From the IMG/VR virus record IMGVR_UViG_3300037067_019759: a DNA stretch of 64,000 nt; one strand, given 5' to 3'. The notes beneath the pieces were generated by a model. That model did no database searches, was not told where the DNA came from, and saw only the letters and a list, made by a program, of their open reading frames with translations. The translations under genes and the position numbers were made by a program. The stretch is from a virus. Its lineage: Duplodnaviria; Heunggongvirae; Uroviricota; Caudoviricetes. Positions 11,523 through 38,867 of the stretch are shown here, piece by piece (the stretch's first letter is position 1; every line of letters begins with the position of its first letter).

Positions 11523-11530
11523 ATAATATA
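11520..11530 (+). promoter_or_regulatory. TATAATATA -10 element upstream of fibre gene 11548
   Basis: ttttTATAATATAgtttattaacaaaaaaaATG. Short leader without a Shine-Dalgarno sequence. Confidence 0.3.
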
Positions 11531-14734: not shown

Positions 14735-17683
14735 ATGAATAAATTACTTGCCAATTTAATACGAATTATAACGGAAATACTACATTGGATTTTGTCGTTT
14801 TTTGTTGATGAACAAGTATTATCAGAGTGGAAATTTTTACATCTTTGTTGGTGGTTTCGTAAACACGGGTTAAAAATTCCGAAGTATTTTATTGGGGCGG
14901 ATACTGGGGCGTTAAGTCCAGGAACAATGGCAGATGACGCAACAGTCGGCACTGTGGCGTGGACGAATCCTGATAATGCGAAGGTGAGTGATAATGTGTA
15001 TGCGAGTGCCGTATTATCGGGAGATTCTCATTATCTCAAAGCAACTAATTTTGGATTTTCTATTCCTAGCGGAGCAACTATAAACGGAGTTGTTGTAGAG
15101 ATACAAAAAAAAGGTTCATATCCAGTAGGAGACTTTCTTGTTGATAAATATGTGAAAATAGTTAAGGCAGATGGAACTATTGGAACAACAAATAAGGCAG
15201 ATACAACAACAAATTGGCCTACTAGCGAAGCATATAAAACCTATGGAGCGAATAATGATTTATGGGGAGAAACTTGGACGGCAGAAAATATAAATGATGT
15301 AGATTTTGGAGTAGTTATTTCTACACAATATACAGGAGTAAATGCTTACATTGACCACATCCGTATCACAGTTTATTACACGGAAGCAATTTCAACTTCG
15401 CCATCTATTAGTCCTTCTATTTCACCAAGTATATCATTTTCCACTTCATTAAGTCCTAGCATTTCTCCTTCTGTTAGTTCTTCTTTTTCTCCCTCTGAAA
15501 GTTCTAGTATTTCACCTTCAGTATCTCCGCCACCTCAAACTAATTTACAGACAGATTATTGGAAAGTTATTTTTGGAGAAATTCCAAGTTTTAGTCCTTC
15601 TGTTAGTCCTAGTATTAGCCCTAGTTTTTCTCTTTCAATTTCTCCTTCCGTTAGTCCTTCCGCTAGTCCAAGTACTAGTATTAGTCCTTCTATTAGTCCT
15701 AGTGTTAGTCCTAGTTTTTCTCCTTCAATTTCTTTTTCCATTAGTCCTTCTGTTAGTCCTAGCGTTAGTATTAGTCCTTCCATTTCTCCTAGCATCAGTC
15801 CATCTATAAGTCCTAGTGTTAGTTTTAGTTTTTCTCCTTCCATCAGTCCTTCTGTTAGTCCTAGCGTTAGTATCAGCCCTTCTCTTTCTCCTAGCATTAG
15901 TCCGTCTGCTAGTCCATCCATTTCTATTAGTCCTAGTTTTTCACCAAGTATTAGTCCAAGTAAAAGTCCTAGCATTTCTTCAAGTATTTCTCCTTCCATC
16001 AGCCCTAGCGCTAGTCCTTCTGCTAGCGTTAGTCCTTCCATATCTCCATCTATTAGTCTGAGTATTTCACCCTCTATATCTCCTAGCTTTAGTCCTTCCG
16101 TTTCTCCTAGCATTAGTATCAGTCCTTCATTCAGTCCTTCATTAAGTCCAAGTGTTAGTCCTTCACTAAGTCCAAGCGTTAGCTCTTCAATATCATCTTC
16201 TATTAGTCCTTCCGTTTCTCCTAGCAACAGTATCAGTCCTTCGTTAAGTCCTTCGTTAAGTCCAAGTGTTAGTCCCTCAATATCGCTTTCCGTCAGTCCT
16301 TCCGAATCTCCTAGTGTTAGTATCAGTCCTTCTATTTCTCCGAGCATTAGTCCTTCCGTTAGTCCTTCAATATCGTCAAGTTTTTCACCCTCTGTTTCAC
16401 TGAGTGTTAGTATCAGTCCTTCTTTTTCTCCCTCTGTCAGTCCTAGCTTTTCTCCCTCTGTCAGTCCTTCCGTGTCTATCTCTCCAAGCATAAGTCCTAG
16501 CGTTAGTCCTTCAATGTCTCCCTCTAAAAGTCCTAGCTTTTCTCCCTCTGTCAGTCCTTCTTTTTCTTTCTCTATTAGTCCATCTACATCTATTTCTCCA
16601 AGTATAAGCCCCAGTGTTAGCCCTTCAATATCTCCCTCTAAAAGTCCTAGCTTTTCTCCCTCCGTCAGTCCTTCCGCGTCTATCTCTCCAAGCATAAGCC
16701 CCAGCATTAGTCCCTCTGTTTCTCCTTCAATTATTTCTAGTCTTAGTCCATCGTTGAGTCCTTCTGTTAGTCCTTCCATATCTTTATCCCAGTCTCCGTC
16801 TATATCGATAAGCCCATCTTTATCGCCAAGTTTTAGTGTTTCGATTAGTTCATCTATTTCTCCGTCTATTAGCCCCTCAATATCTCCTTCTTTAAGCCCC
16901 AGTATTAGTCTCTCAATTTCTCCCTCCTTAAGCCCCAGTATCAGTCCTTCTTTTTCTCCTTCTTTTTCTCCTTCTGTCAGTCCTAGCTTTTCTCCCTCCG
17001 TCAGTCCTTCAATTTCTATAAGTCCATCATTATCACCAAGCATTAGTCCTTCCATTAGTTTTTCTTTTTCATTATCCCTTAGTCCTTCTGTCAGTCCTAG
17101 CTTTTCTCCTTCCGCCAGTCCTTCAATTTCTATAAGTCCATCAATATCACCAAGCATTAGTCCTTCTGTTAGTCCGTCTGTTTCACCGAGCGTTTCTCCC
17201 TCAATTTCTTTTAGTTTAAGTCCGAGTTTCAGTCCGTCCTTCTCTCCTAGCTTTAGTCCTTCCATTAGTTTTTCAATATCTCCTAGTGTTTCACCAAGTT
17301 TTTCATCGAGTTTTTCACCATCTTTTAGTCCATCTGTTTCACCGAGCTTTTCACCATCTTTTAGTCTATCTGTTTCACCTAGTATTAGTCCTTCTTTTAG
17401 TACTTCCATCTCTCCAAGTTTAAGCCCGAGTATAAGTCCTTCCATTAGTCCGTCGTTTTCGCCAAGTGTATCTCCCTCTATTAGTCCTTCAGTTAGTCCT
17501 TCGCCTAGTTTTGAAATCAACGATTGGGTTCCAATTGGTGAAATTGAAGTTGAATATATAAATGGATGTATAGAAACAGAAACTATGACGGGTGAAATAG
17601 ATACTGAATATATGCGCGGATGTATAGAAACAGAAACGATAATAGGCGAAATAGAGACTGAAGATATAAGAGGAACGAGATAA
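14735..17683 (+). CDS. Virion fibre-like protein with a roughly 700-aa SPS-repeat core and a C-terminal GEIETE/GCIETET repeat tail
   Basis: Same repeat class as 11548. The N-terminal domain differs. C-terminal 3x repeat EYINGCIETETM.GEI.TE. Confidence 0.55.
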   Translation: MNKLLANLIRIITEILHWILSFFVDEQVLSEWKFLHLCWWFRKHGLKIPKYFIGADTGALSPGTMADDATVGTVAWTNPDNAKVSDNVYASAVLSGDSHYLKATNFGFSIPSGATINGVVVEIQKKGSYPVGDFLVDKYVKIVKADGTIGTTNKADTTTNWPTSEAYKTYGANNDLWGETWTAENINDVDFGVVISTQYTGVNAYIDHIRITVYYTEAISTSPSISPSISPSISFSTSLSPSISPSVSSSFSPSESSSISPSVSPPPQTNLQTDYWKVIFGEIPSFSPSVSPSISPSFSLSISPSVSPSASPSTSISPSISPSVSPSFSPSISFSISPSVSPSVSISPSISPSISPSISPSVSFSFSPSISPSVSPSVSISPSLSPSISPSASPSISISPSFSPSISPSKSPSISSSISPSISPSASPSASVSPSISPSISLSISPSISPSFSPSVSPSISISPSFSPSLSPSVSPSLSPSVSSSISSSISPSVSPSNSISPSLSPSLSPSVSPSISLSVSPSESPSVSISPSISPSISPSVSPSISSSFSPSVSLSVSISPSFSPSVSPSFSPSVSPSVSISPSISPSVSPSMSPSKSPSFSPSVSPSFSFSISPSTSISPSISPSVSPSISPSKSPSFSPSVSPSASISPSISPSISPSVSPSIISSLSPSLSPSVSPSISLSQSPSISISPSLSPSFSVSISSSISPSISPSISPSLSPSISLSISPSLSPSISPSFSPSFSPSVSPSFSPSVSPSISISPSLSPSISPSISFSFSLSLSPSVSPSFSPSASPSISISPSISPSISPSVSPSVSPSVSPSISFSLSPSFSPSFSPSFSPSISFSISPSVSPSFSSSFSPSFSPSVSPSFSPSFSLSVSPSISPSFSTSISPSLSPSISPSISPSFSPSVSPSISPSVSPSPSFEINDWVPIGEIEVEYINGCIETETMTGEIDTEYMRGCIETETIIGEIETEDIRGTR
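15400..17510 (+). repeat. Coding SPS tandem repeat region of gene 14735
   Basis: Same repeat class. About 2.1 kb. Confidence 0.7.
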
Positions 17684-17700
17684 AAGTACCAAAAATACTG

Positions 17701-17719
17701 GATTTATGGTATAATATAA
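17701..17719 (+). promoter_or_regulatory. Extended -10 promoter (TGgTATAATATAA) upstream of structural gene 17738
   Basis: gatttatggTATAATataat lies 19 nt before the ATG. Confidence 0.4.
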
Positions 17720-19580: not shown

Positions 19581-19723
19581 AAAATTATAATTTATAAACA
19601 GAAAATCCCGCCTTAATAAATAGTAATCTTTCGCAAAAACTATCTATTAAAACGAGATTCTCTGTGCGAAAGATTAAAAGTAAGTTATAAATACAGTATA
19701 TCATACTTCTTAAATAAAGTCAA
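19581..19723 (-). promoter_or_regulatory. Promoter (TTGACT-17-TATACT) plus sequence-divergent pseudoknot of the same topology, upstream of zinc-protein gene 19215-19580
   Basis: -35 at 19718-19723, -10 at 19695-19700. Stem 1 is 19666-19673 with 19627-19635 (TCTTTCGCA/TGCGAAAGA). Stem 2 is 19653-19665 with 19598-19612 (13 bp including two G-U pairs). Confidence 0.45.
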
Positions 19724-19740
19724 GTATTAAATTAAATTAT

Positions 19741-21846
19741 ATGATCAGTAATTCAAATCTTCCTCTCAGAGTCGAAATTTCATATTGGGATGGAATAAAT
19801 TCCGCAGTTTCTTCATCTTTGGTTAAAAAAAATGAACTGAGTTACGCCATAAACGCCAGATCAAAATCCATTGGTAGCATAGAAAAACGTGAAGGAACAA
19901 AAAAATTAGGCAATAGTATCGTAGCTACCGCTAACTATGATATTTTTTACTTCGAGAATGCTCGAACTCCTATTGCAAGTCTTTCTCCTTCAATTTCGCC
20001 ATCAACTAGTCCTTCTATTTCTGTTAGTCCTTCAATTTCGCCATCAGAAAGTCCTTCAATTTCCCTCAGTCCATCTTTTTCGCCGTCAATTAGTCCCTCT
20101 ATTTCGCCATCAGTAAGTCCTTCGCTTTCTCCATCCTTTAGTCCATCTATTAGCCCCTCAGTAAGTCCATCTAATTCGCGTAGCCCCTCTATTTCGCCAT
20201 CTGTTAGCCCCTCGATTTCTCCCAGTTCATCCCCCTCCTCTAGTGTATCACCATCAGCTAGCACTACTACTATTAATGGTTTTTACCGCATTTCTAAAGT
20301 TGGTGGTGTAACTTCTGTTTATTATTTAGATGGTTCTGATACTTGGGTGGCGCTTATAGGAAATGGTACCAATCTTACCGCCGCTAATTTTTCTCATACC
20401 ATTACTGAAGATTGTTGTTTTTTTGTCAATGGTTATGATCTTAATCGTTATATACATTCTGACGGGGTTACTGTTACTACCGCTACAGGTTCTACGGGTC
20501 ATTTATATAATTCTCCTACGGCTCATAAAATAAATTATTATAAAAATAAATTATATTTAGGTGATTATACTGTCGGAGCGAATCGCTACAAAAACGGTAT
20601 AATGATGTCTTCGGAACCATTAGGAATTATTTCTCTTGTTAACGGCGATCATTTATCTGGTGTTACTACTATAAATGTTACTGATAGTAAATATATTTAT
20701 GCGACTGATAGTTTGGACGTATATAGAGGAAATACAAAAATCCAAACATTAACCGTATCTGCTAAAACAGAAAATACAATTACAGTTACTGCGACTACTA
20801 ATGCTTTATTAAGTTCTGATGAACTTTGGGTAAAAGATACTTATGACGGTACTACTTCTAAAAAATTCCGTTGGGCTGGCAATCCGGCAAGCGGAATAAA
20901 TGTCAAACAGTACGATACGATGTTTCTAAGCGGCGGTCAAAACGACGCGATTACGATGATGACAAATATAGGAGATGTGATGATGATAGGGAATAAACAC
21001 AATCTTGCTGTCTGGAATAATAGTAGTCTACAAAATATAGATATCGGAGTAGGTTGCGTAAGCGAACGCGGGTACGTTAAGAATGATGGCGTTTTATATT
21101 TTCTTGATTATTCCGGTGTCTATGCTACTACCGGTGGATTGCCTAAACAAGTATCTGCCAAGGTGCAGAGTTACTTCGATGGTTCTACGAAGGCGGGATT
21201 AGAAGCGGGAGCTATGGGGAAAAAAGGTTCTAGTGTCTTTTGCTCCCTTGGCGACGTTACATTATATTGGCCGGATGGATCGATACGTGAAACGCTTACT
21301 GACGTAGTAATGGAGTTCAACGTACAGCAACAAAACTGGTATATTTTAACTGGAATTTCGTCCACGCAATTTGCTACTTATATTACGTCTAGTGACACAG
21401 ATAGATTGGAGTATAGTGATGATGGTACAAATTGCGATATCCTCGAATTTTTATATAGTGGATCAGCGGTCGATAACGATGGCGTTACTAATAAAGAAAT
21501 ACTTTTTGAAATTGAAACAAATAATATAAATTTTTCAAAGCCATTTGAACGAGTGGTATTCCCGATTGAGGTAATCTTAGAAGCAGAACGCGGGCATGCC
21601 ATCCAATGTTTTGTTAAATTAGATGATGGACAACCGTACGAACTTTCGGGTGAAGGTGTCAAAGGATGCACCGTTTTCCGTATAAAGAACAAAGATATTA
21701 ATAATTCCGTTCCAGTTCGTTGTCGTAACTTGTCTGTAATTTTAAAGGATTTTAGCAAGAGTTTATGCAAAATTACAAGGATTGCAGTGACGTACCTTCC
21801 GTCTAATGAAGAATATACCCAAGATTCAGTTACTTATGGAAAATAA
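19741..21846 (+). CDS. Virion structural protein with an N-terminal roughly 90-aa SPS repeat segment and a large C-terminal domain
   Basis: ISPSTSPSISVSPS... repeat at aa 80-175, then non-repetitive beta-rich sequence. Confidence 0.5.
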   Translation: MISNSNLPLRVEISYWDGINSAVSSSLVKKNELSYAINARSKSIGSIEKREGTKKLGNSIVATANYDIFYFENARTPIASLSPSISPSTSPSISVSPSISPSESPSISLSPSFSPSISPSISPSVSPSLSPSFSPSISPSVSPSNSRSPSISPSVSPSISPSSSPSSSVSPSASTTTINGFYRISKVGGVTSVYYLDGSDTWVALIGNGTNLTAANFSHTITEDCCFFVNGYDLNRYIHSDGVTVTTATGSTGHLYNSPTAHKINYYKNKLYLGDYTVGANRYKNGIMMSSEPLGIISLVNGDHLSGVTTINVTDSKYIYATDSLDVYRGNTKIQTLTVSAKTENTITVTATTNALLSSDELWVKDTYDGTTSKKFRWAGNPASGINVKQYDTMFLSGGQNDAITMMTNIGDVMMIGNKHNLAVWNNSSLQNIDIGVGCVSERGYVKNDGVLYFLDYSGVYATTGGLPKQVSAKVQSYFDGSTKAGLEAGAMGKKGSSVFCSLGDVTLYWPDGSIRETLTDVVMEFNVQQQNWYILTGISSTQFATYITSSDTDRLEYSDDGTNCDILEFLYSGSAVDNDGVTNKEILFEIETNNINFSKPFERVVFPIEVILEAERGHAIQCFVKLDDGQPYELSGEGVKGCTVFRIKNKDINNSVPVRCRNLSVILKDFSKSLCKITRIAVTYLPSNEEYTQDSVTYGK
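19980..20262 (+). repeat. Coding SPS tandem repeat region of gene 19741
   Basis: agtccttcaatttcgccatca-type units. Confidence 0.6.
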
Positions 21847-21937
21847 AATTTAATATAATTGGGTGGTAGCTCCCGTAAGTGGGAAGAGGGGTCTAGTCTC
21901 TCTTCCCAGCCCATTAATAATTAACTAGACTAATTAT
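21847..21937 (+). ncRNA. Conserved two-stem RNA element upstream of HNH gene 21938 (copy 1)
   Basis: Outer stem tggg...ccca. Inner stem GGGAAGAG/CTCTTCCC with loop GGGTCTAGTCT. Conserved CGTAAGTGG and TAATTAACt.GACTAATTATATG. Confidence 0.45.
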
Positions 21938-22765
21938 ATGACTAAAATTTGTACAAAATGCGGGCAGGAAAAAGAATTAAGTGAATTTTATAAACAGAAA
22001 ACTCATAAAGATGGATTATCTTCATGGTGTAAAAAATGTTATAGTTTATATTATTCAAAAAATGAAAAACGTTTAGCTTATCAAAAAAAATATTATTCTA
22101 ATCCAATAGTTAAAGAAAGAGTAAAAAAATATCATAAAGAATGGAGAAAAAATAATATAGAAACAGTATTAATAAAAGGAAAAATCTATTATCAAAATAC
22201 TAAAATAATACGAAGAGAAAAAAGTAAAAATTATAGACAGAATCATAAAGAATATTTTAAGGAATATAATAAACAATATTATCAAAATAATTTAGAAAAA
22301 TTAAAAGAACAACATGAAAAATATCGTCAAAACAATTTAGAAAAAATAAAAGAACAAGCTAAAAAATATGAAAAAAATAATTGTGAAAAAATAAATGAAC
22401 GAAAACGCAATAGAAAAAAAAATGATATTCATTATAAATTAAGATTAAATATTTCCAATTTAATATATATGAGATTAAAATTTAGATTGTCTAACAAAAA
22501 TGGAAAATCTACTTTTTCCTTTCTCCCATATACTGTAGATGATTTAATTAAGCGTTTAGAGTCTTTATTCAAACCTTGGATGAGTTGGAAAAACTATGGT
22601 AATAAACCAGGATATTGGAATATTGATCACAAATATCCTGATTCTTTATTTGATTATAAATCTGTAGAAGACGAGGAATTTCAGAAATGCTGGGCATTGG
22701 ATAATTTACAACCGATGGAATATATAGAAAATATTAAAAAAAGCAATAAATTAATATATGAGTGA
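21938..22765 (+). CDS. HNH-family endonuclease, free-standing. Lys-rich with an N-terminal CxxC ribbon.
   Basis: CTKCGQEK...WCKKCY ribbon. C-terminal WNIDHKYPDS...N..P is His-Me-finger-like. Preceded by the covarying two-stem element. The 3' end overlaps the next gene by 8 nt. Confidence 0.5.
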   Translation: MTKICTKCGQEKELSEFYKQKTHKDGLSSWCKKCYSLYYSKNEKRLAYQKKYYSNPIVKERVKKYHKEWRKNNIETVLIKGKIYYQNTKIIRREKSKNYRQNHKEYFKEYNKQYYQNNLEKLKEQHEKYRQNNLEKIKEQAKKYEKNNCEKINERKRNRKKNDIHYKLRLNISNLIYMRLKFRLSNKNGKSTFSFLPYTVDDLIKRLESLFKPWMSWKNYGNKPGYWNIDHKYPDSLFDYKSVEDEEFQKCWALDNLQPMEYIENIKKSNKLIYE

Positions 22766-25700
22766 AGTTAAAACATATTCAAGCATCCAGAATCCCTACG
22801 ATTCTAATCTCCAGCGGTCATCTAACTCCTCTGACGCTGTTAGTGTTGGCGATAGTAGCAGTGATTTCAGCGACGGGGGGAGTAGCGGAGGTTCAAATAG
22901 CGGTATAACTGTTAGTAACACAGCAACCGAAACACCCTCAAATACCGCCACTATTATTGGTGATTCCTTAAGTGACTTATATCTTGAGACATGGATTCGC
23001 AGTAGATCATATATGCCTAAAGTACAAGGCATACTGATCGACGGTCGCACCGGATATTTTGAAGCGCAAAAAGCCGTAATTACTGGAGATATAACTGCGG
23101 AGACTGGATATATAGGTGGTACCACTGGCTGGACTATCGCCGCTGGTTCTATTAGTTCGGTTAATGGAAGCAACACTACCACGTTATCATCTGGCGGAAC
23201 TAACGCGTTTATTGCTGGGCCAACGGTATTGCCTACAATAACTATTTCACATGCAGGCGTACTTACAGCTACAGGAGCAATAATTAGCGGGACGTTAACA
23301 GCTACTGCAGGTTTTATCGGCGGGTGGACTATAAATACTAATTCTATAACTGATACGGCAGGAACAGTTGGTCTTTCATCAGCGATAACAGTAGGTGACG
23401 ATATTCGCTTTTGGGCTGGACATGCTACCCCTGCCAGTGCTCCTTTTAAAGTAACGGAAGCGGGCGTGTTAACAGCTACATCAGGTGCTATTGGTGGTTG
23501 GACATTAGGGGCAACTACTTTAACTGGAACTGGCGTTACTTTATCAAGCGTGGGCGACGCTTATTTAGCAATCGGAACAACCCCTCCTACTGGAGTTTCT
23601 ACTGGCACGGGAATTTTTATAAATAAAACTGGTTTATTTGGTTTAAATGCTAACGTACAAAATTTTAAAATAGACGCAACTAACGGTAATATAACAGCAA
23701 TCGCAGGGGCAATAGGCGGATTTACGATATCTTCGACTGCTTTATATGCAGGAAATGCGGCTACTAGAGTTCAATTAGACACAACATCAGGAATTCATTT
23801 AGGAGCAACTGCATTTGGGGATGCTCCGTTTAGCGTATCCTTAGCAGGATCATTTATAGCTACTAGCGCTACGATTACGGGTGCAATTACTGCTACATCA
23901 GGGACGATTGGTTCGTTTACAATCGGAACATATCTATATACTGGAACAAAGACTGCGTATAATGATACAAACGCTGGAGTTCATCTTGGCTCCGATGGTA
24001 TTGGAATAGCAAATAATCTATTTACGGTTTCGGCGGCAGGCGTTATTAATGCCGTATCGGGTACGGTAGGTGGTTGTGCCCTGGGAACCACTTCTATTGG
24101 TTCGACTGCTTTTGTGTCTGGGTCAACAGGCTGGAATATTTCCAACGTTGGTACTGCTGAATTTGAAAATATGATAGCAAGAGGAGAATTTAGAACAGCT
24201 GTTTTTGTTAAAGATGAAATTCATGCGACTGGAGGTTCTTTAATAATTTTAAGTGCTTCTACTTTAAAAACTGATTTTACTTCAGTAACTACGCCAACAA
24301 CTTCTACTTTAGATTTAACCGATCCACCATCAGGACACGCACAATTATTTTCTGTTAATGACATTATTAGAATAAAGGACGGTTCTGGAAAAGATAATTG
24401 GTTAAAAGTTACAGGCATATCGGATCAAACTACTTTTTATAGATATACCGTTGATAAGCAAAGCGGAACAAATGGAACTTTTACTGCCGGTGTCGCAGTT
24501 GTTAATTATAAACAATCTACTAACGGACATATACTACTTACGTCTGATGCGACAAATTCTCCTTATATTGACATTGCATTAAATGGTGCAACTCCATGGA
24601 CGGCATCAACATTAGACACAAAAGTTCGCTTAGGATGGTTACAAGGAATTATTGATGCGGATGTTGGATTAAATACAACGGACGTTTGGGGTTTATATAC
24701 TGACAATGCATATATTAAAGGAGTTATTGTCGCTGATACTGGTTATATTGGTGGCACCACCGGTTGGACAATTGCTACTGGTTCCATCAGTTCAATAAAT
24801 GGAGGTAACACTACGACAATAGCTTCGGGGGGAACTAATGCTTATATTGCGGGGACTACTGGATCACCACAATTTATTGTTACGCATGCGGGAGCATTAA
24901 CAGCTATCTCTGCGGATATTACCGGTACAATAAATGCTACAGCGGGATATTTTGGAGATAGCATAAATAGAATTGCAATTGAGTCAGGTGGATTAAATAT
25001 TGGAAATACAGGAGCAATTAGAGGGGGGCAGACCGCTTATGCCACTGGGACTGGTTTTTTTCTTGGTTATTCTGGTTCTGCTTATAAATTTTCTTTAGGA
25101 AATACTGCTAATTATTTTAAATGGGATGGTTCAGATCTACATCTTTCTGGTACGTTAGATGCTCCCTCCGGTTATTTAGGACATATTATTCTTTGTTCTG
25201 TGTGCCACGGATATATAAGTAGCGGTTTAACTACTTATAATTCAGGATCTGGATTTTGGATAGGACATGATGTAGCTGATAATATTTACAAAATATCAAT
25301 AGGAGATGGAACGGTTGAGGGTAGTATGACTTGGGATGGAACTAATTTATTAGTTAGAGGAACTTCGCTTGCCAATCAAAATATTTTTGGCGATGGTTCA
25401 GATGGCGATGTTACAATTTCGGCGGATACAACTTTGTCGTCAGATATGTATTATAATAACTTAACAATTAATACAACAAAAATTTTAAATACTGGTGGAT
25501 ATAGAATATTTGTAAAAGAAACTTTAACAATCAATGGTACTGGAAAAATAATAAGAAATGGAAACACTGGCGGTAATGGCGCTGATGCAACTGCATGGGA
25601 TACTCCTGGTACAACTGGAGGTGCGGGTGGTGCGGCGTTAGCGGATGGTTCAATTAAGGGAGCATTAGCTGGAATTGATGGCGTTAATGGAGTAAGTGGA

Positions 25701-26450
25701 TCGCAAGCAGTAAATGGTCCCGTGACTGGAGTTAATGGAACAGCTGGTAGTTCTGGCGTAAATATAGCAAAATCATTAGTATCTGCTGATGGTGTAAGTG
25801 GAAAGAGTGGAGGAACGGGAGGAAATGGAACAGTTGGAGCTACTACTGCCGTTGGAGGAACGGCAGGTGCTGCAGGATCGGCGGGCACAAGAACGGGAAC
25901 TGTATATAATATCATTAAAAATGCTTATTCCGCTTATTTATTATATGATTTTTTGCCAACAGGAGATAATTTAAAAGCAGCTCCTTCTAATGGTGGGGCG
26001 GCTGCTGGGTCAAGTGGCGGGGCAATGGCAACTCTTGGAGATGGTTGTAGAAGTGGAGCGACTGGAAGAAGTGGAGGTGGGGGTGGTAATGGAGGTATTG
26101 TTTCTATTTTTGCAAAAACTATTATAAATTCTGGTACTATCTCTGCAAATGGAGGAGCAGGAGGAAATGCGGGCACTACTTGGAATAGTGATGCTAGCGG
26201 TACGACAAGTTCAGGCGCTGGAGGGTCAGGCGGTTCCTCTGGAGGATCGGGTGGAAATGGTGGAATATTAATTTTAGTTTATCAAAGTTTAACTAACACA
26301 GGAACAATTCAAGCGATTGGCGGATCTGGCGGAACAAAAGCCGTTGCTGGAACAAAAGCAACGCATGGCTCGGGAACGGCAACGGACGGAACGGACGGAC
26401 AAAATGGAACAACTGGTAACGACGGTCAAATTATATATTTAGTAGTCTAA
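22758..26450 (+). CDS. Tail fibre / tail spike protein, 1230 aa, with a glycine-rich C-terminus
   Basis: Internal approximately 90-aa duplication (TGYIGGTTGWTIA.GSISS.NG.NTTT..SGGTNA.IAG at about aa 115 and 655). C-terminal GGxGGxGG collagen-like or beta-helix-like Gly-rich region. Confidence 0.55.
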   Translation: MSEVKTYSSIQNPYDSNLQRSSNSSDAVSVGDSSSDFSDGGSSGGSNSGITVSNTATETPSNTATIIGDSLSDLYLETWIRSRSYMPKVQGILIDGRTGYFEAQKAVITGDITAETGYIGGTTGWTIAAGSISSVNGSNTTTLSSGGTNAFIAGPTVLPTITISHAGVLTATGAIISGTLTATAGFIGGWTINTNSITDTAGTVGLSSAITVGDDIRFWAGHATPASAPFKVTEAGVLTATSGAIGGWTLGATTLTGTGVTLSSVGDAYLAIGTTPPTGVSTGTGIFINKTGLFGLNANVQNFKIDATNGNITAIAGAIGGFTISSTALYAGNAATRVQLDTTSGIHLGATAFGDAPFSVSLAGSFIATSATITGAITATSGTIGSFTIGTYLYTGTKTAYNDTNAGVHLGSDGIGIANNLFTVSAAGVINAVSGTVGGCALGTTSIGSTAFVSGSTGWNISNVGTAEFENMIARGEFRTAVFVKDEIHATGGSLIILSASTLKTDFTSVTTPTTSTLDLTDPPSGHAQLFSVNDIIRIKDGSGKDNWLKVTGISDQTTFYRYTVDKQSGTNGTFTAGVAVVNYKQSTNGHILLTSDATNSPYIDIALNGATPWTASTLDTKVRLGWLQGIIDADVGLNTTDVWGLYTDNAYIKGVIVADTGYIGGTTGWTIATGSISSINGGNTTTIASGGTNAYIAGTTGSPQFIVTHAGALTAISADITGTINATAGYFGDSINRIAIESGGLNIGNTGAIRGGQTAYATGTGFFLGYSGSAYKFSLGNTANYFKWDGSDLHLSGTLDAPSGYLGHIILCSVCHGYISSGLTTYNSGSGFWIGHDVADNIYKISIGDGTVEGSMTWDGTNLLVRGTSLANQNIFGDGSDGDVTISADTTLSSDMYYNNLTINTTKILNTGGYRIFVKETLTINGTGKIIRNGNTGGNGADATAWDTPGTTGGAGGAALADGSIKGALAGIDGVNGVSGSQAVNGPVTGVNGTAGSSGVNIAKSLVSADGVSGKSGGTGGNGTVGATTAVGGTAGAAGSAGTRTGTVYNIIKNAYSAYLLYDFLPTGDNLKAAPSNGGAAAGSSGGAMATLGDGCRSGATGRSGGGGGNGGIVSIFAKTIINSGTISANGGAGGNAGTTWNSDASGTTSSGAGGSGGSSGGSGGNGGILILVYQSLTNTGTIQAIGGSGGTKAVAGTKATHGSGTATDGTDGQNGTTGNDGQIIYLVV

Positions 26451-26464
26451 AAATAAAATTATTT

Positions 26465-26743
26465 ATGATAAAATATTTTTTATACGAAAAATTAAACGGA
26501 CGGCTAGCATCTTATTCAGATGATGTTATTAAATTTGATAAAAATAAATTTGAATTAAAAAAGATAAATTTAACGGAAGAAGAGTTAACAAATTTACAAA
26601 ATAATAAATATGATAAATTTAAGGATGAAAAGTTAATAATAAAAGATGATATTCAAAAAGCGATAGATGTTAAAGAAAAAATAAGTAAAGCAACAACAAT
26701 GGAAGAACTTAAAAATGTTATATTAACAGATTTAATAAAATAA
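26465..26743 (+). CDS. Hypothetical small protein
   Basis: ORF. Lys/Glu-rich. Confidence 0.3.
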   Translation: MIKYFLYEKLNGRLASYSDDVIKFDKNKFELKKINLTEEELTNLQNNKYDKFKDEKLIIKDDIQKAIDVKEKISKATTMEELKNVILTDLIK

Positions 26744-26747
26744 CAAT

Positions 26748-29579
26748 ATGCGTGTTCAAAAAGGAAATCAAATACAAGTAATAAATCCAATGGATTTAGG
26801 ATTATTTCAAGGTATGGGGTATACGATTTATAATCCTACTGATGTGAATACTTCCGCCCCGTCTAATTTATATAAAAATGAAAACGGTGGTTATGTTTTT
26901 TTTGTCAACAAAATTCAACATCCCGTGTCTGATCCTGATTCTGTAGAAAAATTATGGGGTACCAATATTAAAGATATTAGAGATATGCCAGAATACGGAG
27001 TATCGGGTACTACAGGAGCAACGCAACCATTAATAAAATCATGGCAAATGCAACCAGAAGTAATGAATGGTGGATTACCAGCTACACCAGAACTTTACGC
27101 GCAGGGGCAAAGAGATACTGGACCATTGCAACAAAGTCAAAGTGCTACTCCAAACCCAGCCACAAGTGATATTTTATCTCCAATTCAAAATGGATATGTT
27201 TATGGCGCTGATGTTTTAAATAAAAAAGCTAATGACGCATCGGTTAATACTTTATATCAAGCATATTTTAATAGAGATGCTAATGCCGCTGAATTAAAAA
27301 ATTGGGGAGTGCAAGGTGGCGCGGATACTACTGTTAAAGCATTAGAAGATTTTCTTAAAAGTGAAAGAACAAAATATAACGTAACTACTCCCGTAAAAAC
27401 CTTGGCGGAAATTACTTCTACCCCTATTCCCACTACACCTGCTGCACCTACTGCACCTACTGCACCTACTGCACCTACTGCACCTACTGCACCTACTGCA
27501 CCTACTGCACCTACTACACCTACTGCACCTACTGCACCTACTGCACCTACTGCACCTACTACACCTACTACACCCACTACCCCTACTGCGCCTGTTGCAC
27601 CCACTACACCCATAAATTCGTCTACATCAAATATCCCTTTTATAAATAGTTTAACCGACACTCAAAAACAAAGTATAATTACTCTTTCAACTAAACCAGC
27701 AGATCAGTGGACTACTACGGATAAAACTAATTGGTCATGGGCGACCAATAACTCTTCTATTCCATCAGTATCTGCTCCCACCACTGTTACTCCAACTGTT
27801 TCTGCTAATCAAAATAATATATCAGAATCTTTGATACCGTTTAGAGATGGACTTACCGACGCTCAAAAACAAAGTATTGTTACTCTTTCAACCAAGTCGG
27901 CAGATCAATGGAATGATACTGATAAGGCTAATTGGAAATGGGCGACTAATAATGCTGCGTTACCTATAACGGAACAAGCACCTAAATTGCCAGAAACTTT
28001 ACAAAATAAATTATATGATGCTTTTGGTAGATTTCCAACTGATGAAGATATAAAAAATTATCAATATAATTCTGCTCTTTTTGAAAGACAGTTAGACGAT
28101 GCTATCACGGTAAAAAATAAAAAACAAACAGATGAAACAACACAAATAACTGAACAACAAAAGGCGGATGAAGAAGCAAAAAAACAAGCGACTGATGCCG
28201 CAAATAACGATGCGTTAAAAACTATTTACGGCACAACCAAGCAACCTCTTAACGTAGAACAAAAAGTGGCTAATTTAATCGGCCAAATTTTTACTGCCAT
28301 AAAAAAAAAGGGTGGAATAATAGAAGATACTTTTAAAAACAATATTTTAAATAATCCTACGCAACTGGCAAAATACACTTCTGCCTTGCTTTATGGCGGA
28401 TATACTATTGATGACATTTATCGCGACTTAAAAATTAAAGAATTGGCGGCGCAGGGCATGACGGATTATCAAGGAAAAAGTGGTATTAGCGAAACAATGA
28501 AAGCAACGGAATGGTATAATACTTCCGAAGGGCAATCAAGCAAAAATAATCCCGTATTGGTACCGCCAACTGACACAATGGAAATTAGTGCGGAATTATT
28601 TAACAATCCTATATTTGCTATACCGGCGCAAGCTTTCTCCACATTAGTAGAACCATTAGATAAAAATTCGGCTGAATTTAAAGCTGAGGCGGAAAAGATA
28701 CAAGCGTCATATTATGATATAATGACGCAAAAAGCACAGGCGGAAACGGAACAACAAAAAGCGGTAGCGGATGAAAGTTATCGATTATTTAAAGATAAAT
28801 TAAATAAAACTTACGGAATACAATTAAGTGATAATGCTAATACCGCTTGGGGGCAACTTAATAATCTATTTTCCAGTGCAAGTGAAAAAGGATTAGGGAG
28901 TAGCGGATTACTTGCGGAAGCGACGGACAAATATATGGCGGATATAAGAAAGAAAGATCAAAGGTTAAGAGATGAAAAAGCGACTACAGCTACTACAGAA
29001 GAAATCAACCAATTATTGAAGAGCGGATCAAGTGCTGATATCCAAGCGTATATTGCCAAAGTGGGAGCGGAACGAGCAAAAGAGTTAGGGTTAGTGCCGA
29101 GCGATGAAGTAGCAAATTGGTATAGTACGAGTAATCTGAAAACTCTTTATCCCAATATGAGTGATACGGAAATTGCTAATATCAGAAACACAATGTTGGA
29201 TGAAAATGGAAATTATCGAAGTAATATTTACCAAACAATGTACGGCAATAAATATGATTTAGGACAACAAAAAAAGACTTATCAGGAAGGAAAATTAGAA
29301 GAACAAAAATTAGCGGAAGAGAAGAAAGCGTACGCTCCATTTACAGAAACTAATCCTTTCGTTGATTTAGGAATAAACGAAACAGAAACAAATACAGGAA
29401 CGCAATCTGCTACTCAAAATTATACTTTGCCGAATGCAGGAACGTCAGATATTGATACATCGGATACTAGTGGTAGTTTAGAAAATAGAACGCAGAAAGT
29501 AAAAAATAAAACTACCGGAGAAATTATTTCAGTTTATAAAGATGACGATTGGTGGAAAAATGATTACCAATCGGTTTAA
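26748..29579 (+). CDS. Large virion protein with a (TAP)n repeat and helical Gln/Lys-rich segments. Possible tape-measure-like protein.
   Basis: [10 protein letters not shown] x about 20 encoded by a 9-bp tandem DNA repeat (27430-27610). Long helical regions. Directly upstream of the M23 peptidase. Confidence 0.4.
27430..27610 (+). repeat. 9-bp tandem repeat CCTACTGCA (PTA)n, about 20 copies, in gene 26748
   Basis: Exact copies with occasional ACA/GCG variants. Confidence 0.7.
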
Positions 29580-29588
29580 CATAAAAAT

Positions 29589-30257
29589 ATGAGCGATTTA
29601 CCAATGGCAACTAAATACCAAGATTTAAGCGGAGCAATCTCGCCGATGTTGCAAGCGTCTAAAGAAATAGGGGCGAGTGTCAGTAACGCGCGAAGAAAGA
29701 GCAAGAAAGCGGTGGATGTGTCGCAATATAAAGATTTTACCAGTACGCTGGGGCAGTATAGCGGGGGACAGACGGGGACGGCGAATAGTACACCGGCGAG
29801 TATAAGCGCCCTTGGTAATATTACAACTCCCTATATGGGTTCTACAATTTATGAACCAGGTGGAGCTCCCGGTGGTGCTAATGCACATAAAGGGATAGAT
29901 ATTGCAAATTCGATTGGTACTCCAATTAGAGCTTTTGCAGGAGGAACGGTTACTGAATCTATTACTGGAAAACAACATGGTGAATCAGGGTATGGAAATT
30001 TCGTAAAAATAGTTGATGATTCAGGAAAAGAATGGCGATATAGTCATTTGTCAGAAAATTGGGTCCCTACTATTGGGACTAAAGTTTCTAAAAATCAAGA
30101 AATTGGAAAAATGGGAGCAAGTGGAAGCACTTATTCATCCCATTATGACTATGATCCAAATAATCAAAATACGTGGGGTTCTCATCTTGATTTACGAATT
30201 AAGGATTTATTTGCTGGTGGAAAATATGTAGATCCATTAAGTGTTATTAAATCTTAA
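29589..30257 (+). CDS. M23 family metallopeptidase (virion-associated peptidoglycan hydrolase candidate)
   Basis: HKGIDIANSIGTPIRAFAGGTV ... GNFVKIVDDSGKEWRYSHL ... SHYDY is a LytM/M23 signature. Confidence 0.6.
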   Translation: MSDLPMATKYQDLSGAISPMLQASKEIGASVSNARRKSKKAVDVSQYKDFTSTLGQYSGGQTGTANSTPASISALGNITTPYMGSTIYEPGGAPGGANAHKGIDIANSIGTPIRAFAGGTVTESITGKQHGESGYGNFVKIVDDSGKEWRYSHLSENWVPTIGTKVSKNQEIGKMGASGSTYSSHYDYDPNNQNTWGSHLDLRIKDLFAGGKYVDPLSVIKS

Positions 30258-30362
30258 AATAATATAGTATAATACTATTAGGTTCTTAGCGGACGTAAGT
30301 GGAGTGAGGGGTCAAGTCTCTCACTCCAGCCTAAAATTATAATAATTAACTTGACTAATTAT
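30258..30362 (+). ncRNA. Conserved two-stem RNA element upstream of HNH gene 30363 (copy 2)
   Basis: Outer stem ttagg...cctaa. Inner stem GGAGTGAG/CTCACTCC with loop GGGTCAAGTCT. Compensatory changes in both stems relative to copy 1. Confidence 0.45.
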
Positions 30363-31112
30363 ATGGTTACACTTAAATGTAAAAGATGTGGTAAAGAAAT
30401 AATAACTTATGAATGGTTAAAAAATAGAAAAAAATATTGTTCTAAAAAATGTCAAAAGGTTATTAAAATTAAAAAACAATGTATCATATGTAATAAAATT
30501 TTTGAGGTATATAAATATAGAGAAAATACGGCGAAATTTTGCTCTGATAAATGTCATCGTAAATATAATAAAGGTAAAAAAGCAGTATGGTATGGAAAAC
30601 ATCATTCTGAAAAAACGAAAGAAAAAATAAGTAAAGCAAATAAAGGAAAAAAATGTTCAGAAGAGCAAAGAAAAAAAATGAGTAAAATACAAAAAAATAG
30701 AAAACATTTACCTTGTTATGAATCAACAAAAATAAAAATAGGATTAGCAAATAAAGGAAAAAATAATGGGCAATGGAAAGGAGGAATAACTCCTTTAAGA
30801 GTAACAATTTGGCAAAATATTAAATCAAAAGAATGGCGTTTATCAGTATACGAACGAGACAAATTTACCTGCCAAATGCCAAATTGTGATAGAACAGAAA
30901 CATTTTTAAATGCACATCATATAAAAGAATTTTCTAAAATTTTAGAAGAGTATAATATAAAAACTATAGAAGATGCAATTGATTGTGAGAAACTATGGGA
31001 TATAAATAATGGTATAACTCTCTGTAAAAAATGCCATGGACTAACAAAAATGAGAGAAGAACAATACGCCTCTTTATTCCAAGAAATAGTAAAACTAAAT
31101 TCAATAATATAA
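30363..31112 (+). CDS. HNH homing endonuclease with NUMOD3 repeats. The listed ORF begins at TTG 30351; ATG is at 30363.
   Basis: SKANKGKKCSEEQRKKMSKIQ / GLANKGKNNGQWKGGITP. C-terminal NAHHIKEFSK...NGITLCKKCHG. Preceded by the covarying two-stem element. Confidence 0.65.
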   Translation: MVTLKCKRCGKEIITYEWLKNRKKYCSKKCQKVIKIKKQCIICNKIFEVYKYRENTAKFCSDKCHRKYNKGKKAVWYGKHHSEKTKEKISKANKGKKCSEEQRKKMSKIQKNRKHLPCYESTKIKIGLANKGKNNGQWKGGITPLRVTIWQNIKSKEWRLSVYERDKFTCQMPNCDRTETFLNAHHIKEFSKILEEYNIKTIEDAIDCEKLWDINNGITLCKKCHGLTKMREEQYASLFQEIVKLNSII

Positions 31113-31116
31113 CAAT

Positions 31117-32925
31117 ATGTCTGCAACAACAACAATACAGGATCACATGCAAAAATCGAAAGCTTTCGCTATACGATCTATTATGGGAGACCAAAAACTT
31201 TCCCGCGTGTTGAGCGATGCCGTAAACGCTCCAGCCGGGTCTTTGAAAAAAGCAAAAGCCAAAGCAATTCTTGAATCTTTCTCTAATGCGCATAAAAATT
31301 ATTTGGCGAGTAAGGTGGTAGAGGATGGCAAGGGAGGCGTTGGATTACCGGCAAGTACGGGGTTTAGTATGAATAATGCGCCATTTGCGAAATATGCTCC
31401 GACCGGGTTTAGTTTATTGCCGTACCAACAGAATAAGACACCACAAGTAAACGCTAGTATTGATTCTTCTACTGGATTATTTAGTATACCATCTACAACT
31501 ACTTCAACCCAAACATCTGCTCCGTCGTTAACAAGCGCTCCATCTAGTGTTACCAATCTAGGATATAGTATTAATCCCTCTACTGGTTTGATGGAAAAGT
31601 CAGGATTTCAACTGCCAAAAACGCCAACCTCTGCGACTGTCACTAAACCGACCGCTCCGACCGCGCCTACTTCTGTCGTGTCTGCCACACCAATTGTCCC
31701 GACAGCAACTCCTACTACGCCGATTGCACCTAAAAATATTGAAACTCCAGAGGCAAAAGATTTTTCTACTTTAAATAATATAAAGTCTAGTTTTGGCGAT
31801 AGTTATTTTGAATCGTTTGTAAGTTCTTTAAGCGACTCAGAAAAAGAAAGATTATCGCCAGTAATAGAATCTATCAGATTGGGTGAAGGTGAATCAACTT
31901 TTGTTACTAAAATTCTTAATGATAAAACACAATTAGCCAAAATTTTAGGTACGCCGTTAGAAGTAGTAAATAATTTTCCCACCGGTTTACTCTCAAAAAA
32001 TTTAGGAGAACTTCAAGACACGGTAAAACAAAAATATAAACTCGATGAACAATTAGATAATATTACTAATCTTACCAACCAAAATGTTTCCGTTAAATCT
32101 GATTTAGAGCATTATATTAGAATACAGGATACTTATCTATCAGCGATTGATAAATTATTGAACGATTTTGAATATAATCGCAGTTATCAAGATGAGTCAA
32201 ACCCGAACACAAAATTACGTAATGATAATTATGCCTCGTATTTAAATTTGCTTAAAAATCGCCAAAATTCTCGATATGTCAATTACCTCGATACAGCCGT
32301 AACAACACAAAATAATAAATTAGAACGCGCACAAAATACTTATAATGCTATATTAGGACAAGCGGAGAAAGAATATACAAAACAAGCGGCGATTACGGAA
32401 GAGTCGTACAAAACGGTGAGTAATATGTTATCAGATTTATTTAAAAATGTGGCTGGACGTAGTGATGATTTGAGACAGCTGGAGACGTATGAATTAAGCA
32501 AAACAAAAACTTTGCAAAACATGGTAGATGATTTTAAGAAAAAACAAGATACGGAAACTTATAGTTATAGTAATGTTAAACAAATATTAGAATCATCAAG
32601 AGGGGATGATTTTGGCTCGATTATAAATCCTAACAATATTCCAAAACAGGGTTATGTTGATACTGGTATATATAAAGAATATCGTGATAAAGCAAGCGAC
32701 AAAACGAGTTTCGATAAAAATTTCAGTTATCTCCTTAATCCTAACGATACTACGGCACAAGCATTTATTAAAGAATCAAATTCTGATTTAAGCCAATGGG
32801 AATATGACGCACTCATTTGGCAATGGTTAGCATCTGATGGCAAAGATGCGTCAGACGAAGAAAAATCACAACAAATTAAATCATTAGGCAGAAATCCTGA
32901 ATCTTTTGGAATTTATGGTTATTAA
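31117..32925 (+). CDS. Virion structural protein (unknown role)
   Basis: Large ORF in the structural block. Ser/Thr/Pro-rich linker followed by a helical domain. Confidence 0.4.
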   Translation: MSATTTIQDHMQKSKAFAIRSIMGDQKLSRVLSDAVNAPAGSLKKAKAKAILESFSNAHKNYLASKVVEDGKGGVGLPASTGFSMNNAPFAKYAPTGFSLLPYQQNKTPQVNASIDSSTGLFSIPSTTTSTQTSAPSLTSAPSSVTNLGYSINPSTGLMEKSGFQLPKTPTSATVTKPTAPTAPTSVVSATPIVPTATPTTPIAPKNIETPEAKDFSTLNNIKSSFGDSYFESFVSSLSDSEKERLSPVIESIRLGEGESTFVTKILNDKTQLAKILGTPLEVVNNFPTGLLSKNLGELQDTVKQKYKLDEQLDNITNLTNQNVSVKSDLEHYIRIQDTYLSAIDKLLNDFEYNRSYQDESNPNTKLRNDNYASYLNLLKNRQNSRYVNYLDTAVTTQNNKLERAQNTYNAILGQAEKEYTKQAAITEESYKTVSNMLSDLFKNVAGRSDDLRQLETYELSKTKTLQNMVDDFKKKQDTETYSYSNVKQILESSRGDDFGSIINPNNIPKQGYVDTGIYKEYRDKASDKTSFDKNFSYLLNPNDTTAQAFIKESNSDLSQWEYDALIWQWLASDGKDASDEEKSQQIKSLGRNPESFGIYGY

Positions 32926-36302: not shown

Positions 36303-36917
36303 TTATTTTTCTTTATAAGCAAATTTACCATAATATTTTTGTTCAGCTTCTTTACGAGCATTAATAGCATCTTGTTCTTCTTTGAAATAACCTAAATTAA
36401 CTTTTATACTATTTATTTGAATATATGTTTCCCATCTTTTATATTGTTTATTCCAACAATATCCTTTACATTTTTTGTTCATTGAATTTTGTTGATGCGT
36501 AACAAATCTTAAATTACTTTTTCTATTATCTAAAGTATTTCCAAAACTATGGTCTACTTCATATCCTTTGGGTGGATTTCCAAATATTAAATGATGTAAA
36601 AAATATTTTTTTTTATTAATCGTTGTAATTATATATTTTTTACCTTTTTTTGCTCTTATCCCCCATTTATATCCCTTAATTTTCTCCAAGTCTTCTTTAT
36701 CTATCAATGCTCTTGCAACTTCTATTTGTTCCCCACTACCTTGATATAAACAAATCTCATAATAATCACCGCAGTCTATAATTTCATTAGGATCATATCT
36801 TGTTCTTTTTAATATTTTTCCATAAGTACGAAATTGTAAATAATGTCTTCCGCAGTATCCTTTTTCAAAATATTTATTTTCACAATTATCAACTTTACAT
36901 TTTTTTCCTTCTAACAT
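36303..36917 (-). CDS. HNH-AP2 homing endonuclease
   Basis: CKVDNCENKYFEKGYCGRHY zinc motif. HHLIFG...YEVDHSFGNTLDNRKSNLRFVTHQQN (HNH_3). C-terminal WETYIQINSIKVNLGYFKEEQDAINARKEAEQKYYG (AP2 fold). Confidence 0.6.
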   Translation of the reverse strand: MLEGKKCKVDNCENKYFEKGYCGRHYLQFRTYGKILKRTRYDPNEIIDCGDYYEICLYQGSGEQIEVARALIDKEDLEKIKGYKWGIRAKKGKKYIITTINKKKYFLHHLIFGNPPKGYEVDHSFGNTLDNRKSNLRFVTHQQNSMNKKCKGYCWNKQYKRWETYIQINSIKVNLGYFKEEQDAINARKEAEQKYYGKFAYKEK

Positions 36918-37043
36918 AAATTTTATAAATAAAAGCCCAGAATCTATTAGTAACCTGTTGAGAAAACTAATAGAATATCCGGGTTTTTATTTCAACAGGT
37001 TAATTAACTCCTTCCATTATATCATACTTTTATTATTTGTCAA
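36918..37043 (-). promoter_or_regulatory. Promoter (TTGACA-16-TATAAT) plus 5'-UTR pseudoknot cassette upstream of HNH-AP2 gene 36303-36917
   Basis: Minus strand: -35 at 37038-37043, -10 at 37016-37021. Stem 1 is 36993-36999 with 36954-36960 (CCTGTTG/CAACAGG). Stem 2 is 36977-36992 with 36927-36940. The two stems are interleaved. Confidence 0.5.
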
Positions 37044-38721: not shown

Positions 38722-38867
38722 ATACTTTTCCTATAACACAAATCCCATCAACAAGAACAGCTAGTTACCCGCAAAGATAATTGTTGCTATTCTACGTTAA
38801 TGGGATTTGTGTCTTTGCGGGTTATAAATTATATCACCAGTATACCAAAAGTATATTAAGTTGTCAA
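38722..38867 (-). promoter_or_regulatory. Promoter (TTGACA-17-TATACT) plus 5'-UTR pseudoknot upstream of HNH-AP2 gene 37945-38721
   Basis: -35 at 38862-38867, -10 at 38839-38844. Stem 1 is 38813-38821 with 38768-38776 (CCCGCAAAG/CTTTGCGGG). Stem 2 is 38800-38812 with 38746-38758 (ACACAAATCCCAT/ATGGGATTTGTGT). Confidence 0.55.

Follow-up and report, generated by a model that had tools for sequence, protein, structure and literature searches.

The window analyzed here is a 64,000-nucleotide (nt) stretch of Caudoviricetes DNA (IMG/VR record IMGVR_UViG_3300037067_019759) that carries two copies of a structured RNA element of ~80 nt, each ending at the start codon of an HNH endonuclease gene. Copy A (positions 21860 to 21940) and copy B (30278 to 30365), both on the plus strand, belong to a leader family that was found 5' of some 30 different genes for HNH homing endonucleases in phage contigs from IMG/VR, JGI, ENA, and NCBI. 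Compensatory base changes define a fold in which a three-way junction is followed by a hairpin at the start codon, and the loop of this hairpin is complementary to the loop of the long arm of the junction. The leader is probably a cis-acting translational brake on the mRNA of free-standing HNH endonucleases, with repression suggested by the geometry of the folded start site.

Copies A and B are 83 to 86% identical over ~90 nt. The window contains exactly two occurrences each of the motifs CGTAAGTGG-N6-GGGTCNAGTCT and TAATTAACTNGACTAATTATATG, against 0.02 and 0.00 expected from dinucleotide shuffles, and a covariance model built from nine members from other phages, with the window copies left out, found exactly these two sites (64.4 and 58.2 bits; E = 4e−13 and 1.6e−11). 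Both results bear out a preliminary description of this DNA, which had placed two copies of the element here. The upstream neighbors are co-directional structural genes, a 701-amino-acid (aa) open reading frame (ORF) ending at 21846 and an M23 peptidase ORF ending at 30257, and the gap from the upstream stop codon to each copy is 13 to 21 nt. The 3' end of each copy is the ATG of an endonuclease gene. Gene A (21938 to 22765, plus strand) encodes a 275-aa protein with a zinc-finger N terminus resembling endonuclease VII and an HNH-like C terminus, and gene B (30363 to 31112, plus strand) encodes a 249-aa protein with NUMOD3 and HNH_2 domains by Pfam. The two proteins are unrelated in sequence (BLASTP E = 0.58). 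The preliminary description was therefore right that the downstream proteins differ in type, and its inference that the element is not a by-product of gene duplication was correct. The start codon of gene B had been misplaced, as it is the ATG at 30363 and not the in-frame TTG at 30351.

Folding of the single sequences gave an outer stem (P1), an inner stem (P2), and a small AU hairpin (P3) just 5' of the ATG, and RNAalifold recovered P1, P2, and P3 without manual input. In copy A, P1 pairs TGGGT (21860 to 21864) with GCCCA (21909 to 21913), with a conserved U.G as its top pair. It is followed by the mini-hairpin P1a (GG-TAGCT-CC, 21865 to 21873), the single-stranded junction CGTAAG (21874 to 21879), and the P2 hairpin (21880 to 21908), in which 11 bp (21880 to 21890 with 21898 to 21908) close the loop GTCTAGT (21891 to 21897). 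The P3 hairpin occupies 21918 to 21936 and consists of TAATTA, the loop ACTAGAC (21924 to 21930), and TAATTA. Copy B has the same parts: P1 (TTAGGT, 30278 to 30283, with GCCTAA, 30329 to 30334), P1a (TC(T)-TAGC-(G)GA, 30284 to 30293), the junction CGTAAG (30294 to 30299), P2 (30300 to 30328; 11-bp stem and 7-nt loop GTCAAGT, 30311 to 30317), and P3 (30343 to 30361; TAATTA on either side of the loop ACTTGAC, 30349 to 30355). The outer stem had thus been recognized correctly in both copies. The inner stem that had been described is also present in both, but it has 11 bp and a 7-nt loop rather than 8 bp and an 11-nt loop, the extra pairs being one U-A pair, to which CGTAAGT contributes its final T, and a G.U and a G-C pair at the apex. 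Three compensatory positions, not the four that had been counted, lie in the inner stem, and one more lies in the outer stem (G-C to A-U). The conserved tail that had been noted is real, and it proves in addition to be the P3 hairpin itself.

The loops of P2 and P3 are complementary in both window copies. The P2 loop, GUCUAGU in copy A and GUCAAGU in copy B, matches a segment of the tail (ACUAGAC in copy A, ACUUGAC in copy B) with full complementarity, and the one variable base of the P2 loop (T in copy A, A in copy B) covaries with the one variable base of the tail (A or T). Because the P2 loop exactly complements the loop of the AU hairpin, these two variable bases add a further compensatory pair, and a kissing contact between the hairpins is possible.

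Beyond the window, the covariance model recovered further copies with compensatory changes in other phages and none in the remainder of the 64 kb. Its matches included two more cassettes of contig L314 (which has three in tandem), a decayed remnant in contig L082, and a divergent member in contig L020. Generalized pattern scans of IMG/VR raised the total to about 25 distinct leaders. The first of these patterns, anchored on AAGT, was too loose; it gave at least 120 matches, mostly by chance, which were filtered. The model-based alignment used for all family statistics below (A7) contains 27 distinct sequences. In the family, P1 has 5 bp (N-G/U/A-G-G-U with G-C-C-C/A/U-N), P1a has 2 to 3 bp with a loop of 4 to 5 nt, and P2 has 9 to 12 bp with the 7-nt loop G-U-NNNN-U. 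The P1 3' arm comes directly after P2 and is followed by an A-rich linker of 6 to 16 nt and by P3, which is usually TAATTA/A-NNNN-AC/TAATTA. In 26 of 27 members, the ATG shares the final base of the P3 3' arm or lies at most 4 nt downstream of this arm; in L085, the distance is 9 nt. P1, P1a, and P2 form the three-way junction, and CGYAAG is its sole unpaired strand; this strand is nearly invariant, being replaced by AGTAAT in two members and by CGAAAG in one.

Covariation supports the helices of the junction. P1 is 97% paired, its second pair being G-C, U-A, or A-U and its top pair U.G in 26 of 27 members. P1a is 100% paired, and both of its pairs covary (UA, AU, and GC in 15, 8, and 4 members; CG, GC, UA, and UG in 16, 5, 4, and 2). 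All P2 cells are paired. Changes on both sides affect nine of the ten modeled P2 pairs, both P1a pairs, and two of the five P1 pairs. Overall, 99.5% of cells are paired, versus 78% in shuffles, and the covariation score of 0.604 (0.165 in shuffles) was reached by none of 500 shuffled alignments. Both-side changes occur in 18 of 30 pairs and in 164 cells, where 41 are expected. On four of five measures no shuffle of the 500 equaled the observed value; on the fifth, the number of pairs with double changes, two did. When the 3' partners were slid by 1 to 3 columns as a control, pairing fell to 33 to 45% and the score to 0.05 to 0.10. By the general criterion of compensatory changes beyond shuffled and slid controls, the leader is a structured RNA family. 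In addition, 47 cells of the alignment are G.U pairs, among them the U.G retained by 26 of 27 members; on the opposite strand, all would be C.A mismatches. Because G.U pairs exist on the sense strand only, the structure belongs to the sense-strand RNA, that is, to the endonuclease mRNA.

In all 27 aligned members, the P2 and P3 loops are perfectly complementary over 7 nt (100% paired). Both-side changes affect five of the seven pairs of this loop-loop helix, and a single position may show as many as four pair types. The 27 members have 17 distinct loop sequences between them, and changes at the four central bases are compensated in every case. Because the covariance model did not include the loop-loop pairing, this helix had no part in fitting the alignment. 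In every member, P3 and the kissing helix together extend over the region between about −20 and the ATG, the arrangement expected of an RNA that sequesters a ribosome-binding site. Predicted free energies are about 0 for P3 alone, −2.7 to −7.7 kcal/mol for the 7-bp loop duplex, and a mean of −15 kcal/mol for P2.

Most IMG/VR members came from a pattern that required TAATTAA-N6-TRATTA, and the invariance of P3 in the alignment is therefore partly imposed. As a control for this bias, a second scan was made with a pattern covering P1a and the junction only. The new members that it found keep P3 and the loop-loop pairing with other sequences. In L379, from a GC-richer phage, P3 is ATCCC/GGGAT with loops CUGUAG/UUACAG, and a Shine-Dalgarno sequence, GGAGGGG, lies within the P3 loop and 3' arm, with the ATG 3 nt downstream. 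L382 has ATTACT/GGTAAT and loops CTGCTAT/ATAGCAG, with GAGG in the loop, and the divergent L020 has the stem TACA/TGTA and loops GTTAGAT/ATCTAAC. On the basis of these three members, P3 also covaries, and the Shine-Dalgarno sequence, where there is one (inside P3 in L379 and L382), sits in the locked hairpin. Most genes in the window itself lack a Shine-Dalgarno sequence.

The genes that follow the leaders encode HNH, HNH_2, HNH_3, HNH_5, or NUMOD3-HNH endonucleases or are the decayed remains of genes. The downstream proteins scanned with Pfam are 116 to 305 aa long and contain HNH and NUMOD3 domains only. Other small downstream proteins have no Pfam match, and several of these show zinc-finger or HNH-like motifs by eye; the L382 leader precedes a 359-aa protein with a weak zinc-ribbon match, and the L379 leader precedes a 71-aa ORF. 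The downstream ORFs of L249, L305, L377, L020, and L378 are visibly decayed. In the first three, the leader is followed by ORFs of only 3 to 16 codons, while L020 (921 to 1007) and L378 keep the full fold with no intact ORF after it. The L082 remnant (15930 to 15986) keeps P1, P1a, and the junction and has lost P2 exactly. In L082, L020, L378, L381, L249, L305, and L377, leaders have outlived their genes.

Homologs of endonuclease A (199 at E < 1e−5) were used to compare loci. The closest lie at the same locus in the short metagenome contigs L085 to L087 and have a homologous leader. L082, a related phage contig of 105 kb, has a leader-bearing paralog at another locus, and homologs in L088 and L089 have leaders too. 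In L082 and L085 to L089, the inner stem is wholly different in sequence and still paired, with loops GUUAUCU/AGAUAAC or GUAGUAU/AUACUAC. Between the window and the orthologous L085 locus, the end of the flanking gene and the ends of the endonuclease are 70 to 93% identical, and the leader interior is ~50 to 65% identical with every helix kept. About 150 of 160 loci with endonuclease A homologs have no leader. Because most of these loci lack it, the leader is a module of a set of phages and is not tied to one protein family. The loci of distant relatives of the 1230-aa neighbor of gene A gave a single divergent member, L020. This neighbor is a structural gene whose start is overlapped by the stop of endonuclease A by 8 nt (22758 to 22765), an overlap also present at the orthologous locus in L085 to L087, and translation of the essential 1230-aa gene may be coupled to the endonuclease A ORF.

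Searches for a described counterpart were negative. Rfam 15 at its gathering threshold gave no match in the 64-kb window, which covers its riboswitch, ribozyme, group I and II intron, and leader families, and a permissive Rfam search of 21830 to 21960 (copy A) with E values up to 10 gave only two chance microRNA matches (E = 4 and E = 7). A tRNA scan found none, and a group I intron fragment was rejected as an explanation for lack of a match in Rfam 15. Megablast of 19700 to 31200 against the INPHARED phages gave no match, nor did the exact tail pattern in IMG/VR. An exact scan for the copy-specific 20-nt core found no match in IMG/VR or JGI metagenomes; the one match in GTDB was discarded as a chance occurrence inside a Saprospiraceae coding region without the stem. 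The motif was not found in the searchable literature, and in the two large motif surveys by Weinberg, neither "endonuclease" nor "homing" appears in the main text. The leader family is apparently undescribed, with no counterpart in Rfam 15 or in the searchable literature.

Our proposal is that each copy is the 5' untranslated leader of an endonuclease mRNA. The three-way junction would position P2 so that its loop captures the loop of P3, which is predicted to be unstable alone and would be locked by the kissing helix. The stacked P2, kissing, and P3 helices would then close the whole ribosome-binding stretch, which reaches from about −20 to the start codon, together with the Shine-Dalgarno sequence where the host uses one. 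Little endonuclease would be translated from any transcript with the full leader. Such low output would spare the phage from DNA cutting and the structural operon from disturbance. More speculatively, transcripts from the endonuclease's own promoter, perhaps starting at or inside the P1 5' arm, might escape the brake, as the late transcripts of T4 I-TevI do.

Several points weigh against this proposal. It is geometry that suggests repression; alternatively, the fold could raise translation or set its timing, for instance if ribosomes used the A-rich linker as a standby site. Since a simple hairpin could already occlude the start site, CGYAAG, the U.G pair, and the three-way junction are left unexplained by a brake. 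P3 is mostly an invariant TAATTA palindrome, and its covariation comes from the three divergent members described above. Release of the brake is also difficult to account for. A −10-like hexamer lies −2 to 9 nt from P1 in 12 of 27 members (versus 10.5% at random positions of the same loci), and a sigma-70 scan found no full promoter and no −35 element at either window copy. A promoter abutting P1 would remove the P1 5' arm only and, unlike in the T4 systems discussed below, would spare the helix that covers the start site. The conserved junction, the U.G pair, and the conserved loop end positions suggest a precise tertiary fold that may have a ligand or protein partner or a cleavage activity.

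Two other readings extend the brake model rather than replace it. In one, which we consider unlikely, the leader is a sensor, in which a small molecule or a protein of phage or host origin, bound by the junction (CGYAAG and U.G), gates the P2-P3 loop contact and thereby translation. The unpaired junction bases are nearly invariant while all stems vary freely, the architecture exceeds what occlusion of a ribosome-binding site needs, and the family is absent from Rfam 15. The marginal energy of the loop-loop helix and the instability of P3 also place the leader in a regime where a ligand or protein could tip the balance. Set against this, the gene context yields no candidate ligand or protein, autoregulation by the product is unlikely given that the downstream proteins share nothing beyond the HNH core, and the conserved junction bases could be purely architectural. 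It is similarly doubtful that the leaders form a new class of sensing RNA for selfish endonucleases, with the CGYAAG junction as an aptamer for a metabolite, ion, or phage protein or as a new ribozyme core. Were this so, the kissing loops would act as the expression platform, and endonuclease expression would be confined to a particular cellular state, co-infection or late infection for instance. Each cassette would then have a private address in the hypervariable 4-nt core of its loops, preventing cross-pairing between the two copies of the window or the three of L314.

The other reading, which we rate as rather improbable, gives the leader a role in mRNA processing or stability. It would either protect the transcript from 5' decay or be cut, so that the endonuclease message is separated from a long structural transcript or inactivated within that transcript. 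The cut would be made by RNase III within the ~24 bp of stacked P2, kissing, and P3 helices or by the RNA itself as an unrecognized self-cleaving ribozyme. Coaxially stacked kissing helices are known substrates of RNase III in antisense systems, and a small RNA with a three-way junction, loop-loop contacts, and a conserved core is reminiscent of self-cleaving ribozymes. The position of the element between co-directional structural operon genes, shortly after the upstream stop codon, would suit such a role, and several members follow a terminator-like hairpin or promoter-like motif and would thus lie at the 5' end of a transcript. On the other hand, no Rfam ribozyme or RNase III site family matched even at E values up to 10, the hammerhead core is not in the junction, and neither the tight spacing to the start codon nor a Shine-Dalgarno sequence inside P3 is needed for processing.

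The preliminary description had offered three roles for the element. The first, a regulatory leader of mobile genes, is supported by a conserved 5' element that lies directly 5' of HNH genes of several unrelated Pfam families and ends at their start codons. The second, an endonuclease recognition site or insertion-site remnant, is weighed here within a wider role as DNA, which could also be that of a cleavage site or of a recombination sequence that moves cassettes. The element does travel with mobile genes, copies without genes exist in decayed form (L082, L020, and L378), and the identical stretches of ~20 to 25 nt between copies (TAATAATTAAC..GACTAATTATATG) could support recombination that spreads the leader to unrelated endonucleases. 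However, unrelated endonucleases inserted at different sites in different phages share this element, and its stems and loops change freely as long as pairing is kept, with G.U pairs that exist on the sense strand only, where a site read by a protein would conserve sequence. At the L085 locus, moreover, the flanks are better conserved than the leader interior and there is no sharp cassette boundary. A DNA role is very unlikely. The third, a small RNA, taken here as a free-standing one that acts in trans, strikes us as extremely unlikely. The element is compact and structured and sometimes has a promoter-like hexamer in front, but a terminator scan calls nothing at either site, in virtually all intact members the element continues straight into the start codon, and the segment that varies most has its pairing partner in the same RNA. 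An intrinsic terminator was rejected as an identity for the element itself, P2 being followed by AGCCCAUUAAUAAUUAA and not directly by a U run, with no terminator called at either site.

The translational brake that we favor has a precedent in phage T4 and its relatives. There, I-TevI, I-TevII, I-TevIII, segB, and mobE of Aeh1 are controlled by RNA structures in which the ribosome-binding site is sequestered, and internal late promoters relieve the block, as described in PMC2988022. In these systems, as in the window, a cis-acting RNA in the endonuclease leader includes the ribosome-binding region and the gene lies inside a longer transcription unit; a promoter element, putative in the window leaders, often lies at the 5' edge of the structure. 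The T4 structures are single idiosyncratic hairpins with no sequence shared between genes, whereas the window leader represents one family conserved in sequence and structure. Unlike them, it combines a conserved junction strand with a three-way junction and a tertiary contact between loops, and it is common to unrelated endonucleases in many uncultured phages.

Other known RNAs resemble the leader in part. In the ColE1 RNAI/RNAII and HIV TAR-TAR* complexes, 7-nt loops of two molecules are complementary over their full length and form a helix stacked through both stems. The geometry of the leader is like that of RNAI/RNAII, with the difference that both loops are in one leader, ~25 to 35 nt apart, and the second hairpin carries the start site. 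In the T4 gene 32 leader, rpsO/S15, preQ1-I, and SAM-II, a hairpin loop pairs with a downstream segment near the start codon, and each is tied to a known protein or ligand. The leader has no similarity in sequence or Rfam model to these pseudoknot operators and riboswitches, and its downstream segment is itself a hairpin loop. HEARO, the omega-RNA of IscB, is an RNA of ~300 nt in Rfam that guides the IscB nuclease (RuvC and HNH), and like the leader it lies directly 5' of the gene for an HNH-domain nuclease in mobile DNA. It was rejected as an identity for the leader, which is ~80 nt long, has no Rfam match in the window, and precedes endonucleases without a Pfam RuvC domain. Structured leaders that control phage homing endonucleases are thus a known kind of element, and what appears to be new is a conserved, modular kissing-loop family with a three-way junction, common to unrelated endonucleases.

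A second leader family lies on the minus strand of the window, 5' of four HNH_3 paralogs (36303 to 36917, 37945 to 38721, 39209 to 39802, and 42341 to 43090). Its copies (36936 to 37043, 38737 to 38867, 39819 to 39937, and 43102 to 43228) begin with a TTGACA-17-TATACT/TATAAT promoter, followed by two long covarying stems that are interleaved (S1-5', S2-5', S1-3', S2-3'). In three of the four copies, the promoter spacer ATACTTTTG is complementary to CAAAAGTAT just 5' of the ATG. Because this pairing arm lies inside the promoter spacer, only read-through transcripts could hide the start site, as in T4 I-TevI. Like the kissing-loop leader, the second family is a structured leader of HNH genes that has covarying stems and ends with an arm next to the ATG. 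It stands between a promoter and the gene. Its sequence and fold are unrelated to those of the kissing-loop leader, and its promoter, TTGACA-17-TATACT, is clear. The second family appears to show the same regulatory logic elsewhere in this phage and fits the T4 precedent closely.

In all, Pfam identifies at least nine HNH/NUMOD3 endonuclease-like genes in the window, an unusually heavy load: genes A and B, the four HNH_3 paralogs, and genes at 60 to 782, 8981 to 9748, and 48580 to 49083. No structured leader from either of the two window families precedes the genes at 8981 and 48580.

Sequences with the appearance of promoters are found near several leaders. In copy A, a putative −10 hexamer, TATAAT (21854 to 21859, plus strand), abuts P1 with no good −35 element, and in copy B, TATAAT (30268 to 30273, plus strand) lies 4 to 5 nt 5' of P1. 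In L382, a TTGACA-17-TATATT promoter ends ~5 nt before P1. A conserved motif of ~27 nt, GCGCCGA[AT]TATC[CT]G[AT]ACATTA[AC]AATT, occurs just 5' of P1 in one group of phages, with L256, L371, L376, and all three tandem cassettes of L314 (approximately 6410 to 6450, 7470 to 7510, and 8370 to 8410), and it could be a phage-specific promoter. In the window, TATAATAT(A), with no −35 element, is found at approximately 10820 to 10840, 11515 to 11530, 17700 to 17715, and 55605 to 55620, ahead of structural and other plus-strand genes that start at 10856, 11548, 17738, and 55640. It is possibly a late-promoter motif of the phage, and the TATAAT of the leaders possibly belongs to the same class. TATAAT is also complementary to ATTATA in the start region; this match was not used, as 6 to 8 AU pairs are expected by chance in AT-rich DNA.

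The window has other notable features. Two very large ORFs (1059 and 982 aa) between 11548 and 17683 are full of diverged repeats with a 12-nt period; long antisense ORFs (12543 to 14300 and 15556 to 17520) accompany them, GC and AT skew are locally inverted, and GC content is raised to ~40%. A tandem array with a 9-nt period (ACTGCACCT-like, ~20 units in its densest stretch) occupies 27377 to 27646 inside a 943-aa ORF (26748 to 29579). Two adjacent radical SAM/SPASM genes at 1326 to 3131, one of which matches a QueE-like PHROG, hint at nucleotide or peptide modification chemistry in this phage.

To our knowledge, homing endonucleases are the commonest selfish genes in phages, and their control is understood for only a handful of T4 genes. 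Control of the T4 endonucleases is ad hoc, gene by gene, whereas the leader described here is a portable, conserved RNA module that unrelated endonucleases have acquired repeatedly, in uncultured phages from many environments. The covariation is already strong enough for submission of the family to Rfam. If it acts as proposed, the leader would be a natural intramolecular 7-bp kissing complex that serves as a translational lock, and its swappable, apparently orthogonal loops may interest RNA designers. In annotation, its sequence would also serve to mark free-standing endonuclease cassettes, decayed ones included, and the start codons of these. For the phages themselves, it would point to a general and testable rule by which endonuclease genes are kept harmless within essential operons.

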